From Piscicoccus intestinalis (GTDB lineage Bacteria; Actinomycetota; Actinomycetes; Actinomycetales; Dermatophilaceae), in assembly GCA_039812445.1 (NCBI GenBank), contig JBDIAM010000037.1, forward strand, positions 1 through 16,878: a stretch of 16,878 nucleotides of DNA. The letters run 5' to 3'. Under the pieces are notes generated by a model. It saw nothing but the letters and a program-made list of their open reading frames with translations. It did not search any database and was not told where the DNA came from. Shown one piece after another: positions 4,929 to 12,813 of the stretch (the stretch's first letter is position 1; each line of letters opens with the position of its first letter). A program made the position numbers and the translations under genes.

Positions 4929-6788
<1,860 letters not shown>

Positions 6789-6845: not shown

Positions 6846-6915
6846 CCCTGCACCGTAGCGGCTCCCGGCGCCGCGCGTCCACGCGGGTGCCGGCCCGGCG
6901 CGTCGGCACGCCCCG

Positions 6916-7137
6916 CTACTGCTTGCGCGGCCGGCCCCGGCGCGGCAGGGGTCTCGCGTCGCGAGGAGCCCGGCCCTCGGCCTCCAGGGCGCGGCGCAGC
7001 ACGATCTCGATCTGCGCGTTGACGCTGCGCAGCTCGTCGGACGCCCAGCGCGAGAGCGCCTCGTGCACGGCAGGGTCGAGCCGCAGCAGCACCTGCTTGC
7101 GCTGCTGCGGCTGCGGCTTGTCGTTCCCGCCTGACAC
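6916..7137 (-). CDS. Small ribbon-helix-helix (Arc/CopG/HicB-antitoxin-like) DNA-binding protein
   Basis: GTG 7137 ... TAG 6916, 73 aa: VSGGNDKPQPQQRKQVLLRLDPAVHEALSRWASDELRSVNAQIEIVLRRALEAEGRAPRDARPLPRRGRPRKQ. Beta-strand LLRL followed by two helices is the RHH signature. Strong GC3 bias. Lies 40 nt after the SPFH stop, same strand. Start codon uncertain. Confidence 0.55.
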   Translation of the reverse strand: MSGGNDKPQPQQRKQVLLRLDPAVHEALSRWASDELRSVNAQIEIVLRRALEAEGRAPRDARPLPRRGRPRKQ

Positions 7138-7177: not shown

Positions 7178-8248
7178 TCAGGTGTAGAGGCTGCCGGTGT
7201 TGACGACCGGGGTGGCCCGCTGCTCGCCGCACAGCACGACGAGCAGGTTGCTGACCATCGCCGCGCGGCGCTCCTCGTCGAGGGCCACGACCGAATCGGC
7301 CTCCAGGCGCTGCAGGGCGTCTTCGACCATGCCGACCGCGCCGTCGACGATGCGGGCGCGGGCCGCGACGATCGCGCCGGCCTGCTGGCGCTGCAGCATC
7401 GCCTGGGCGATCTCCGGGGCGTAGGCCAGGTGGGCGATGCGCACCTCGATGACCTCGACACCGGCGATGATGACGCGCTCGGCCACCTCGTGCGCCAGCT
7501 CCGCGCTGACCAGATCGGTGCTGCCCCGCAGCGACGTGGCGCCGCCCTCGTAGTCGTCGTAGGGGTGCGTCGTCGCGACGTGCCGCAGCGCCGCCTCCGC
7601 CTGCACGTGCACGAAGTCGCTGTAGTCCTCGACCGCGAACCGCGCCTTGGCTGTATCAGCCACCTGCCACACGACGATCGCGCCGATCTCGACCGGGTTG
7701 CCGTGCGCGTCGTTGACCTTGACGACACTCGTCTCGAAGTTGTGCACCCGCACGGAGACGGTGGGCTTGGTCGTCAGCGGCATCACCATCGTCAGGCCCT
7801 CGCGCCGGTTCGTGCCGACGTACTGCCCGAAGAACTGCAGCACCTTCGTCTGCCCCGGCTGCACGATCGTCACCGAGCTGAGCACGAGCACCGCGGCGAC
7901 GAACAGCACCCCGGCCCCGATCAGCGCGCCCAGGCCGCCGGTGCCGGCGTTGAGCGCGAATCCCCCGATGACCGCCAGGTAGACCGCCACCCCCAGCAGC
8001 ACGACCCCGACGAGCAACGCGAGGAAGCCGTTGACCGCCCAGGCCCGGCGCTCGGTGACGTCGACCCGCGCGCCCGAGTGCCCCACCGGCGTCGCCTGCG
8101 GCGGCACCTCCTGCGGGCCCTCCGAGACCACGCCCTCGGCCGTGGCGCCGCGTGACTCTCGCACCCCCTGCTCCCGTGCTTCCGGGGCCTCCCGTGCCTC
8201 CCGTGCCTCGGCGGGCACCGAACCGTCTCGTCGCCCCTGCTCGTCCAT
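7178..8248 (-). CDS. SPFH / band-7 (stomatin-prohibitin-flotillin-HflK/C family) membrane protein
   Basis: Start ATG 8248 preceded by GGGGAG 7 nt upstream. N-terminal acidic [14 protein letters not shown] repeat, two predicted TM helices ([23 protein letters not shown]; [21 protein letters not shown]), then SPFH core ([18 protein letters not shown]...[24 protein letters not shown]). The ORF-track start at 8395 reads through the promoter region and is probably spurious. Confidence 0.85.
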
Positions 8249-8281
8249 CACAACTCCCCTCTCGTCGGCCAGCTCGGCCCC

Positions 8282-8302
8282 CTGATATCTAAGTGATATC
8301 AG
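8282..8302. promoter_or_regulatory. Perfect palindrome CTGATATC-TAAGT-GATATCAG in an AT-rich island; candidate operator over the SPFH promoter
   Basis: 8-bp arms with a 5-bp spacer in a locally AT-rich patch, unusual for this genome. Minus-strand ATAAAT -10-like hexamer (8308-8303) immediately abuts it, about 50 nt upstream of SPFH ATG 8248. It lies about 60 bp from the divergent M4 promoter element. Confidence 0.45.
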
Positions 8303-8363
8303 ATTTATGACGTGGTCGCGAGCGCGTCGGTTCCGCTCGGGCGCGGATTGTTGAACTCGAACC

Positions 8364-8386
8364 TTGTCGGTGGTCGGTGCTTCAAT
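8364..8386 (+). promoter_or_regulatory. RecA-NDp-like (PafBC-type DNA-damage) promoter element TTGTCGGTG-N8-TTCAAT, placed for a leaderless M4-nei transcript
   Basis: TTGTCGGTG (8364-8372) perfectly matches the tTGTCRgtg -35-like element of the mycobacterial/actinobacterial RecA-independent promoter. After 8 nt comes TTCAAT (8381-8386) versus consensus TAnnnT, one mismatch at position 2. The ATG at 8394 lies 7 nt after the hexamer with no SD, so the transcript would be leaderless. Confidence 0.35.
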
Positions 8387-8393
8387 CGTTGAC

Positions 8394-9827
8394 ATGACGA
8401 ATCACCGTGAACTTCACGACATCTCGCGCGGGGCCGCGCAGTGCACGGTGGTCCCGCCGTTCCTGCTGCAGCGCCTGGCGCGCTCCGGAGACGGGCCGGC
8501 CGCCACCGTGGCCCGCGACACCCTGCGTCTGGAGCACACGCTGCGGGTGCGGCGCGAGGCGCGCTCGATGCGCCAGCCACGATCGACGGGCGGCCCCGTG
8601 CCGGGTCGGGAGCCCGCCGCCGGCGGCGAGCCGCAGAACGAGCGCGTCGACGAGCCGGTCGAGGGGCCGCTCGAGGGGCGAGGCGACGAGCGGGGCGATG
8701 CTCGAGGCGGTGACGCCCGCGACGGGAGCGGGGAACCGGGGCCGCCCGGTCAGGGGTTCGTGCCCGACCGGCTGCAGCGCCACCCCAGGCTCCGGGAGCA
8801 TCGTCGCGTCGAACCGCCGCGCGGGCTGGCGCCCGGCGAGCCGCCACAGGAGGCGGTGACCGCGACCCCCGACCGGGCGGTCCACGACGCCGAGCACGGC
8901 ACCGATCTGCCCGGCGTGCTGCGCCGCGACGAGGGCGCCGAGCCGCACGCCGACGAGTCCGTCAACGAGGCCTACGACGGGCTCGGCCACACGTGGTCGC
9001 TGTTCCACGACGCGTACGGGCGCAACTCCCTCGACGACGCCGGGCTCAAGCTCGTCGCGTCCGTGCACTTCGCGAAGGACTACGACAACGCGTTCTGGGA
9101 CGGCGAACAGATGGTCTTCGGCGACGGCGACGGCGAGGTGTTCGGCTCGTTCACCGACTGCCTCGACGTCATCGGCCACGAGCTCGCGCACGGGTTCACC
9201 CAGTACACGGCGGGATTCGTCTATGTCGGGCAGTCCGGGGCGCTCAACGAGCACGTCTCCGACGTGTTCGGCGTGCTCACCGTGCAGCGCGTCGAGGGGC
9301 AGATCGCCGACCAGGCCGACTGGCTCGTCGGCAAGGACCTGTTCCTGCCGGGCGTGCAGGGCGTCGCGCTGCGGTCGATGAAGGCGCCCGGCACCGCGTA
9401 CGACGACCCGCGCCTGGGCAAAGACCCGCAGCCCGCGCACATGGACGACTACGAACAGCTGCCGCACGACGAGGCCAACGACAACGGCGGGGTGCACATC
9501 AACTCCGGCATCCCCAACCACGCCTTCTACCTGGCCGCCACCACCCTCGGCGGCAACGCCTGGGAGGCCCCCGGCCAGATCTGGTACGACGTCATGACCA
9601 CCGGCGGCCTGCCCAAAGACGCCGACTTCGCGGCCTTCGCCGCCGCCACCCTCGCGGCCGCCGGCGCCCGTTACGGCGAGGGCAGCGCCGAGCAGGAGGC
9701 GGTCCGGGCGGGCTGGGACGGAGTCGGTGTGGTCGCCGCCGCCTCCCCCGTGCACCTGACCCGGCCCCGGCCCGACGCGCGGGCGGCCGCCCGGGGGCCG
9801 CGGCGCCTGCCCGATGCCCGAAGGTGA
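8394..9827 (+). CDS. Protealysin-like thermolysin-family (M4) zinc metalloprotease, intracellular type with short PPL-motif propeptide
   Basis: HExxH plus downstream Glu (VIGHELAHGFTQYTAGFVYVGQSGALNEHVSDVFG). Other M4 blocks: DNAFWDGEQMVFGDGDG, GGVHINSGIPNHAFY, C-terminal VRAGWDGVGV. No signal peptide. N-terminal CTVVPPFLLQRL resembles the conserved PPL motif of protealysin-like propeptides. An Asp/Glu/Gly/Arg low-complexity linker of roughly 60 residues (PAAGGEPQNERVDEPVEGPLEGRGDERGDARGGDARDGSGEP) sits between propeptide and catalytic domain. Stop overlaps nei start by 14 nt. Confidence 0.9.
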   Translation: MTNHRELHDISRGAAQCTVVPPFLLQRLARSGDGPAATVARDTLRLEHTLRVRREARSMRQPRSTGGPVPGREPAAGGEPQNERVDEPVEGPLEGRGDERGDARGGDARDGSGEPGPPGQGFVPDRLQRHPRLREHRRVEPPRGLAPGEPPQEAVTATPDRAVHDAEHGTDLPGVLRRDEGAEPHADESVNEAYDGLGHTWSLFHDAYGRNSLDDAGLKLVASVHFAKDYDNAFWDGEQMVFGDGDGEVFGSFTDCLDVIGHELAHGFTQYTAGFVYVGQSGALNEHVSDVFGVLTVQRVEGQIADQADWLVGKDLFLPGVQGVALRSMKAPGTAYDDPRLGKDPQPAHMDDYEQLPHDEANDNGGVHINSGIPNHAFYLAATTLGGNAWEAPGQIWYDVMTTGGLPKDADFAAFAAATLAAAGARYGEGSAEQEAVRAGWDGVGVVAAASPVHLTRPRPDARAAARGPRRLPDARR

Positions 9828-11445: not shown

Positions 11446-12813
11446 ATGAGCACGATCCTGTGGCTGCGCCGGGACCTGCGCCGCGACGACCTGCCGGCGC
11501 TGGTCGCCGCGCACGAGGCGGCGGGCGACGGCCGGGTGCTGCCGGTGTTCGTGCTCGACCCGAGGCTGTGGAACGGCGCGGGCGAGGCGCGCCGCGCGGC
11601 GCTGCGAGACGCCCTGCAGCGCGCCCAGGAGGAGTACGACGGCGCGCTCGTCGCGCGTCGCGGCGACCCCGCGCAGGTGCTGGCGCACCTCGCGACCCAG
11701 ACCGGCGCCACCAGCGTGCACGTCAGCGGCGAATCGACCCCCTTCGGCCGCCGCCGCGGGGAGGCCGTGCACGCAGCCCTCGCCGCCTTGCCCGGAGGCG
11801 GGGTGCCGGTGGTCGCGACCGGCACCCCGTACGCCGTCTCCCCCGGCCGCATCCGCACCCAGGCCGGCACGCCCTACCAGGTGTTCACCCCGTTCGCGCG
11901 GGCCTGGCGCGCCCACGGCCACCCCGGCCCGGCGCGGCCGCCCGCGGCCGTGCGGTGGCTCACCGGCGTCCCCAGCGACGACCTGCCCGGCACGGCCGAC
12001 GCGTCACCGGCTCCCGGCCCGGACCCCCGGCAGGCGTGGCGTGACTTTCTCGACGAGGGACTCGGCGACTACGACACCGCCCGCGACCGCCCCGATCTCG
12101 ACGCCACCTCGCGGGTCTCCGAGCACCTGAAGTTCGGGGCGCTGCACCCGCGCACTCTGCTCGCCGACGTCGCCGCGCACCCCGCGGCCGGGAGCACCGC
12201 GGCCCGCCGGTTCGTCGACCAGCTCATCTGGCGCGAGTTCTACGCCGACGTGCTGTGGCACCGCCCCGAATCCGCCTGGCACGACCTGCGCCCGCTCGGC
12301 GACATCGGCACCGACCCCGACGCCGACGAGCAGACCGCGCACCGCTGGGACGCCTGGTGCGCCGGCCGCACCGGCTACCCCTACGTCGACGCCGGGATGC
12401 GCCAACTGCTCGCGCAGGGCTGGATGCACAACCGGCTGCGCATGGTCACTGCCTCCTTCCTCGTCAAGGACCTGCACATCCGCTGGCAGCACGGCGCCCG
12501 GTTCTTCCTCGCGCACCTGCGCGACGGCGATCTCGCCTCGAACAACCACGGCTGGCAGTGGGCGGCCGGCACCGGCACCGACGCCGCGCCCTACGTGCGG
12601 GTCTTCAACCCGATCACCCAGGGGAGGCGGTTCGACCCCGGCGGCGACTACGTGCGCCGCCACGTGCCCGAACTCGCGCACGTCGCCGGGGCCGCCGCCC
12701 ACGAGCCGTGGAACGCCCCCGACGGGTACACCCACGGATACCCGCAGCGGATCGTCGACCACGCGGCCGAGCGCCGCGAGGCCCTGCGTCGCTTCCACGA
12801 GGTGTCGCCCTGA
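11446..12813 (+). CDS. phrB: Deoxyribodipyrimidine photolyase (class I CPD photolyase/cryptochrome family)
   Basis: 455 aa. N-terminal photolyase alpha/beta domain (ILWLRRDLRRDDLPAL) and FAD-binding domain with WREFY, GYPYVDAGMRQLLAQGWMHNRLRMVTASFLVKDL and NNHGWQWAAGTGTDAAPYVRVFNP signature blocks. Confidence 0.95.
   Translation: MSTILWLRRDLRRDDLPALVAAHEAAGDGRVLPVFVLDPRLWNGAGEARRAALRDALQRAQEEYDGALVARRGDPAQVLAHLATQTGATSVHVSGESTPFGRRRGEAVHAALAALPGGGVPVVATGTPYAVSPGRIRTQAGTPYQVFTPFARAWRAHGHPGPARPPAAVRWLTGVPSDDLPGTADASPAPGPDPRQAWRDFLDEGLGDYDTARDRPDLDATSRVSEHLKFGALHPRTLLADVAAHPAAGSTAARRFVDQLIWREFYADVLWHRPESAWHDLRPLGDIGTDPDADEQTAHRWDAWCAGRTGYPYVDAGMRQLLAQGWMHNRLRMVTASFLVKDLHIRWQHGARFFLAHLRDGDLASNNHGWQWAAGTGTDAAPYVRVFNPITQGRRFDPGGDYVRRHVPELAHVAGAAAHEPWNAPDGYTHGYPQRIVDHAAERREALRRFHEVSP

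Follow-up and report, generated by a model that had tools for sequence, protein, structure and literature searches.

The stretch of DNA analysed here (16,878 nucleotides; hereafter the window) carries on its minus strand a gene for an SPFH/Band 7 membrane protein (7178–8248; Pfam PF01145 Band_7, E 5.8e-20, residues 128–297), which is the first gene of its unit. The gene that follows on the same strand (6916–7137) encodes an Arc-like ribbon-helix-helix (RHH) protein of 73 aa, proposed as an autorepressor, and begins 40 nt after the SPFH stop. A terminator scan found no terminator-like site on the minus strand between the two genes. The pair is neighboured by leuA (4929–6719, minus strand), and an M4 peptidase gene (8394–9827, plus strand) is divergent from the SPFH gene; the gene content proposed by the first-pass annotation (SPFH, a small downstream gene and a divergent M4) was thus borne out. 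The SPFH start codon (ATG at 8248, minus strand) lies 33 nt past the palindrome described below, and a ribosome-binding site read from the sequence (GGGGAG, 8254–8259, minus strand) stands 5 nt before it. The SPFH protein has more than 8000 homologues, its closest named relatives belong to Dermatophilaceae (Mobilicoccus, 73% identity), and a phmmer search against the PDB returned no match at E <= 0.001. Its residues 1–70 form a long extension at the N-terminus, rich in E, R, A and P and encoded by direct repeats at 8171–8219, which is longer than in most relatives and precedes a conserved PVGH motif and a membrane segment. After the RHH stop, an inverted repeat (GTGCCG-N11-CGGCAC, 6870–6912, minus strand) lacking a T tract may serve as a factor-independent terminator or may mark off the 196-nt leader region of leuA. 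The PADLOC anti-phage defence models matched none of the SPFH, RHH and M4 proteins.

The segment at 8282–8302 reads CTGATATC-TAAGT-GATATCAG, with arms of 8 nt that are 100% complementary and a spacer of 5 nt. In gene sense, CTGATATC is the promoter-distal arm (8295–8302, minus strand), the better conserved of the two in relatives as judged by information content and site lists, and GATATCAG is the more degenerate promoter-proximal arm (8282–8289, minus strand). This putative operator core comprises two palindromic GATATC subsites with centres 11 bp apart; as GATATC is its own reverse complement, the site can equally be read as a direct repeat (TGATATC at 8283 and 8294, period 11). The G + C content of 8200–8399 was 0.615 compared with 0.735 for the whole window, which confirmed the earlier description of a 21-bp perfect inverted repeat in an AT-rich patch. 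The end of the site had previously been placed at 8310; the palindrome held as far as 8302, and the longer span takes in the ATTTAT flank. In gene sense this flank is ATAAAT (8303–8308, minus strand), found adjoining the palindrome as had been reported and forming part of a conserved WAAAW flank. The flank on the downstream side is GGGGC in the window and lacks the A/T tract present in most relatives.

The palindrome was then placed against the background of the window. With up to 3 mismatches allowed, it gave a single match in the 16,878 nt, and its pattern was matched in none of 200 dinucleotide-preserving shuffles of the window. The whole window contains just two GATATC sequences, and both lie inside the palindrome. 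Scored with a weight matrix built from orthologous sites, the palindrome reached 35.7 bits, and the next non-overlapping position in the window scored below 0 bits.

In a first comparison, we examined three orthologous loci, from Mobilicoccus caccae, Gephyromycinifex aptenodytis and one metagenome contig (L005). The SPFH gene was followed by a gene of 73–80 codons in all three, and the motif lay just upstream of SPFH in all three. Upstream of the motif, Mobilicoccus and Gephyromycinifex have a co-directional S9 peptidase gene, and the metagenome contig has a divergent M4 gene. A metagenome scan with the SPFH alignment yielded 80 further loci, which were scored with a weight matrix built from sites containing TATC-N7-TATC at a threshold of >= 25 bits. 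A site at this threshold was present upstream of SPFH in 59 of the 75 metagenome loci with enough upstream DNA and at none of 329,544 other positions, and the RHH gene lay downstream of SPFH in 75 of 76. The gene-sense consensus was AAAGTGATATC-N5-GATATCACTTT with an A/T-rich spacer, and among relatives both the second arm and the outer AAAG/CTTT flanks were symmetrically conserved. Metagenome loci lacking a strong match carried variants with 10-bp spacing, two 16-bp units or a single AAAGTGATATCACTTT unit. Overall, the spacing between units in relatives was 10, 11, 21 or 22 bp, or the unit stood alone; these spacings are in phase with the DNA helix, which fits what would be expected for proteins bound on one face. 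Individual architectures included 10-bp spacing (L014, L021, L024, L025), two complete 16-bp units 21–22 bp apart (L049, L056, L070, L076), a lone unit (L055, L206) and three units with an 11-bp period (L210).

An exact-pattern scan for (C/G)TGATATC-N5-GATATCA(C/G) covered about 185,000 genomes, one per species, and returned at least 120 sites in at least 119 stretches; as these stretches were not centred on the matches, some sites near their ends were unclassifiable. At least 60 sites directly preceded an SPFH homologue in the same orientation, nearly all of these homologues being followed by an RHH homologue, and 2 more SPFH-RHH sites among the matches listed, at a stretch end or behind a frameshift, were recognised by eye, giving at least 62. 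The taxa included Actinomycetota, Bacillota, Gammaproteobacteria, Acidobacteriota, Spirochaetota, Gemmatimonadota, Chloroflexota and Patescibacteria (among the organisms, Lachnospiraceae, Oscillospiraceae, Streptococcus parasanguinis, S. oralis, Colwellia, Pseudoalteromonas, Stenotrophomonas and Treponema). Plasmid records added Deinococcota, Bacteroidota and Alphaproteobacteria; the organisms they contributed were Deinococcus, Bacillus thuringiensis, Qipengyuania, Bosea, Rhizobium, Parabacteroides and Prevotella. The results demonstrated that the motif accompanies the SPFH-RHH pair across about ten bacterial phyla.

The link between the motif and the RHH gene was assessed by a co-occurrence test on 17 loci with SPFH homologues, picked by SPFH similarity alone, in which the small gene was called present at a profile E <= 3e-14. 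All 10 loci with an RHH gene after SPFH carried GATATC-type units 20–70 nt before the SPFH start, compared with 0 of the 7 loci lacking the RHH gene (Listeria, one Deinococcus, Pseudomonas and Vibrio), a split for which Fisher's exact test gives p of about 5e-5. Only two genes were constant neighbours of the motif, the SPFH gene, encoding the membrane protein, and the small RHH gene. This split supports the earlier proposal that the RHH protein encoded downstream is the autoregulator.

Promoter geometry was surveyed over 118 unique promoter regions. The TTGnnn -35 hexamers peaked at a spacer of 17 bp (18 loci) and 16 bp (7 loci) from the TATCAN of the distal arm, with mostly 0–3 loci at other offsets, and the peak held in both GC classes. 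The dominant layout, described from low-GC relatives, was TTGACA, 16–17 bp, and then TATCAy within the distal arm, in which the GTG before TATCAy supplies an extended -10 (TGnTATCAT). Since the -35 lies 16–17 bp upstream of the distal-arm hexamer, the operator overlaps the -10 and the transcription start. In a second layout, a complete TTGACA-N17-TATAAT ended right before the operator, and in a third the -35 adjoined the operator and the -10 was the TATCAC of the proximal arm. The operator covered the -10 and/or the start site in all three layouts, which, as read from the sequences, is the geometry of a repressor. Together with the pairing across phyla, this overlap in relatives upholds the previous reading of the palindrome as a repressor operator at the SPFH promoter.

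In the window itself, a scan of 8100–8500 for consensus promoters and terminators returned no match, and the -35 TCGCGA (8321–8316) matched at only 3 of 6 positions. Because the -35 is weak and no consensus promoter was found, we infer the promoter assignment in the window from the relatives. The putative extended -10 is TG-A-TATCAC (8293–8301, minus strand; TG at 8301–8300, hexamer at 8298–8293), whose hexamer TATCAC does not end in the T of the actinobacterial TAnnnT -10. Transcription would start at about 8286 +/- 3, in or near the proximal arm, predicting a leader of about 38 nt. The ATAAAT flank, which had been taken for a -10 hexamer, was considered as a candidate and set aside: its equivalents in relatives (GAAAA, ATAAA, TAAAT) keep no TAnnnT register. 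It is probably part of the A/T flank (WAAAW), and the TATCAC in the distal arm, preceded by TG, is the likelier -10.

The small protein reads ...RKQVLLRLDPAVHEALSRWASDELRSVNAQIEIVLRRALEAEGR...PRRGRPRKQ and is, judged from its sequence, an RHH protein of the Arc type. In a cross-phylum alignment, K14, L18, R19, W31, R37, S38, N40, E44 and L47 were invariant. Comparison of the cross-phylum alignment A3 with P22 Arc by hhalign gave a probability of 91.5% (E 8.4e-7) over 44 columns, which make up the whole RHH domain, and the best profile matches among solved structures were Arc variants; similarity to Arc by HMMER was weak (E 0.0025 to 0.4). At the Pfam cut-offs the window protein was matched neither by RHH_5 (PF07878; 16.7 bits vs 26) nor by HicB (17.9 vs 21), Arc (PF03869) and FitA-like_RHH (PF22513) gave no match, and no NCBIfam model matched it. 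An AlphaFold2 monomer consisted of one long helix (pLDDT 76) that found no match in the PDB by Foldseek; this model is uninformative because the RHH fold is an obligate dimer, for which monomer modelling is unsuitable. A weak profile match (E 0.12) was also seen to chain G of structure 9pio, a 79-residue 'Arc family DNA-binding protein'. Homologues are annotated as 'hypothetical', as 'HicB family antitoxin' and, in Parabacteroides, as 'Arc family DNA-binding protein'. Assignment to the HicB antitoxins was rejected: HicB scored below its cut-off, the neighbours are SPFH and leuA with no adjacent toxin gene, and the name comes only from automatic annotation, unsupported because the HicA partner is absent.

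At its C-terminus the window protein carries an AT-hook, PRRGRPRK (residues 65–72; codons at 6922–6945, minus strand), with an RGRP core flanked by basic residues. R67, G68, R69 and P70 were invariant in 20 of 20 actinobacterial homologues. GRP was found in 85 of 133 RHH partners, all of them from loci with at least 56% G+C, and no AT-hook was found in the RHH partners of Bacillota and Pseudomonadota loci. Among high-GC loci, the upstream 5-nt flank held 4.23 A/T of 5 where the protein has an AT-hook compared with 2.86 where no hook was detected (p = 7e-5), a comparison that is confounded by phylogeny and in which some no-hook proteins are cut at contig ends. These results make the ATAAAT flank a candidate minor-groove docking site for the hook.

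Taken together, the palindrome is very probably the operator of the SPFH-RHH operon, negatively autoregulated by the RHH protein. From sequence comparison we infer that two dimers of the Arc-like RHH protein would occupy the operator, one over each palindromic GATATC core, and that, with the cores 11 bp apart, both would sit on the same helix face. The 11-bp core spacing and the variants at two helical turns fit the dimer-of-dimers mode, and two dimers are likelier than the single dimer envisaged by the first-pass annotation. In high-GC lineages, the C-terminal AT-hook probably adds minor-groove contacts at the ATAAAT flank and perhaps at the A/T-rich spacer. As the promoter-distal arm would double as the extended -10 (TGATATCAC), the bound protein would block RNA polymerase at the -10 and the start, and the predicted outcome is that SPFH and the RHH repressor are both placed under negative autoregulation. 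This arrangement has precedents: RHH dimers insert a two-stranded sheet into the major groove and commonly bind inverted repeats as dimers of dimers (PMC2777438, PMC3920265), which is the rule for Arc, MetJ, NikR, FitAB and ParR (PMC2777438).

A close parallel is with P22 Arc and Mnt, with which the window protein shares the RHH fold, the RSVN motif at the start of helix B and the 44-residue profile alignment. On the P22 Arc operator, too, a dimer of dimers occupies two subsites spaced by about 11 bp (PMC2777438), a likeness seen here at the level of sequence, and that operator overlaps its promoter, as the operator here does in relatives. The operator sequences differ, each subsite here being a perfect GATATC palindrome, and unlike P22 Arc the present protein is chromosomally encoded, paired with SPFH, furnished with an AT-hook tail in high-GC lineages and not matched by PF03869. 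The tail resembles HMGA-type AT-hooks in its PRRGRPRK core and in that the operators of hook-bearing proteins have A/T-rich flanks in high-GC DNA, but it is a single hook appended to an RHH domain; a literature search found no described RHH + AT-hook repressor.

A second parallel is with FitA-FitB. The FitA half-site is TGCTATCA, one base from TGATATCA. In the exact-pattern scan, the same palindrome, (G/C)TGATATC-N5-GATATCA(G/C), stood 1–19 nt before FitA-like RHH + PIN operons in at least 5 genomes (L096, L104, L106, L108 and L162), the Pfam assignment (PF22513, PF01850) having been checked for L096 and L104. Sites of this type are thus found next to at least two RHH families. As in the present model, FitA-FitB places RHH dimers on paired inverted subsites in its own promoter (PMC3920265). 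The two systems differ in that the window protein has no PF22513 match, in that no toxin gene is present here, and in that the partner is a membrane scaffold protein encoded upstream, not downstream, of the RHH gene.

Several other readings of the palindrome were weighed against autoregulation by the RHH protein. The best surviving of them, which we consider unlikely, is that the palindrome is a protein operator bound by another, unlinked regulator, with the RHH protein doing a different job, such as that of an antitoxin-like partner of SPFH. It draws on sites away from the SPFH-RHH pair: besides the FitA-type toxin-antitoxin operons just described, in at least 10 Clostridia genomes the same palindrome precedes an ABC-transporter operon, and the 8-kb stretches covered contain no Arc-like RHH gene. 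Recognition of the palindrome is therefore not exclusive to one protein family. Against an unlinked regulator stand the co-occurrence of the motif with the RHH gene (10 of 10 loci, and 0 of 7 SPFH loci lacking the gene) and the persistence of this pairing over about 10 phyla, with no other DNA-binding gene as a constant neighbour. The Clostridia palindromes (L102, L116, L135, L144, L171, L203, L089, L124, L151 and L168) are identical and lie 12–70 nt upstream of an operon that encodes an ABC ATPase (PF00005) together with a permease (PF16949) of about 537 aa; they could belong to the same regulon, controlled in trans, or else serve a different protein.

A further reading gives the palindrome a second target, the divergent M4 protease gene, which would share the operator with SPFH; such a link was suggested by the first-pass annotation. 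SPFH and M4 are divergent, about 145 bp apart, in the window and in metagenome contig L005, but the end of the operator lies 62 bp from the promoter-like element of M4 (8364–8386) and its centre about 100 bp from the M4 start codon. In addition, Mobilicoccus and Gephyromycinifex have the S9 peptidase gene in the place of M4, and almost every other taxon likewise has a different upstream gene; the motif remains with SPFH. Control of M4 by the operator is thus very unlikely, its proximity to the site being incidental, and the M4 gene was not retained as part of the unit.

It is also conceivable that the site is a bare promoter, in which an extended -10 is accompanied by a chance or duplicated second copy and no repressor is involved. 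The distal arm does read TGnTATCAN at 16–17 bp from a -35 in many relatives. Such a promoter would not account for the symmetrical conservation of the second arm and the outer AAAG/CTTT flanks, for the relatives in which the whole operator lies downstream of a complete TTGACA-N17-TATAAT, or for the absence of the motif at SPFH genes that have no RHH partner, and we regard this reading as highly improbable. Least credible is a hairpin in the SPFH mRNA leader, or a DNA cruciform: an 8-bp stem with a 5-nt loop is predicted in the minimum-energy fold of the minus-strand RNA, but the fold z-score is only -1.67, Rfam gave no family match over the whole window, only 9 of the 111 inner-arm pairs that depart from the consensus in 59 unique orthologous sites are still complementary, the GATATC sequence itself is kept across phyla, variants with 21–22 bp spacing and lone units exist, and the distal arm, because it overlaps the -10 in most relatives, would there be left out of the transcript.

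Autoregulation of an RHH repressor through a phased inverted-repeat operator is, as a kind of system, textbook material. The literature search found no description of an SPFH-RHH cassette across about ten phyla with a near-invariant operator, and searches on the motif string, on SPFH with Arc, CopG or antitoxin, and on the FitA half-site returned nothing relevant. Two-gene units are known for SPFH: the SPFH-NfeD operons (SPFH1, SPFH2 and SPFH5) are likewise conserved and show signs of lateral transfer (PMC2636767), but in the present unit a DNA-binding RHH protein takes the place of NfeD. Hinderhofer et al. (2009), surveying prokaryotic SPFH families, gave NfeD as the sole conserved partner, mentioned no DNA-binding partner and stated that subfamilies 6–12 are without documented member proteins (PMC2636767).

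SPFH proteins occur widely in bacteria, their regulation and function are mostly obscure, and the cassette gives a handle on them: one SPFH family is accompanied by a predicted repressor of its own and by an operator that stays almost identical across Actinomycetota, Streptococcus, Bacteroidota and Deinococcus. A cis-element conserved in sequence across phyla is uncommon among transcription-factor sites. The fusion of an RHH domain to an AT-hook is a further point of interest, with operator flanks that form A/T-rich islands in DNA of 70% GC. The predicted circuit is directly testable, consisting of a 73-residue protein and a site of 21–31 bp, and Streptomyces, Bacillus thuringiensis and Streptococcus parasanguinis are cultured carriers of the cassette. 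More speculatively, SPFH-RHH may be a self-contained membrane-state switch whose repressor also acts in trans, for example on the Clostridia ABC-exporter operons; we hold this to be doubtful. If true, the SPFH scaffold or its damage would set the availability of the Arc-like repressor, in a manner likened to PspA-PspF or to the conditional cooperativity of toxin-antitoxin systems, and the near-invariant operator would mark an ancient or laterally spread, undescribed stress regulon.

Two minor observations concern the Bacteroidota and the M4 gene. In Bacteroidota, the operators have variant cores (TAATATCA twice and TGATATTA twice; L214, Parabacteroides, and L215, Prevotella), and the RHH strand reads KSFILRV instead of KQVLLRL; this is possibly a co-variation of protein and site. 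Upstream of the M4 ATG (8394), the plus strand carries TTGTCGGTG-N8-TTCAAT at 8364–8386, ending 7 nt before the ATG, which on its sequence is the geometry of a leaderless transcript. This promoter-like motif had 1 match in the window compared with 0.01 expected, and in L005 TTGTCGGTG-N9-TACCTT-N5-ATG is retained ahead of the M4 gene. The M4 upstream element resembles the RecA-NDp / PafBC-type promoter motif of actinobacteria, tTGTCRgtg-N8-TAnnnT. The M4 protein lacks a signal peptide and carries a VVPPFLL motif like that of protealysin-type enzymes, and a photolyase gene lies nearby at 11446–12813.
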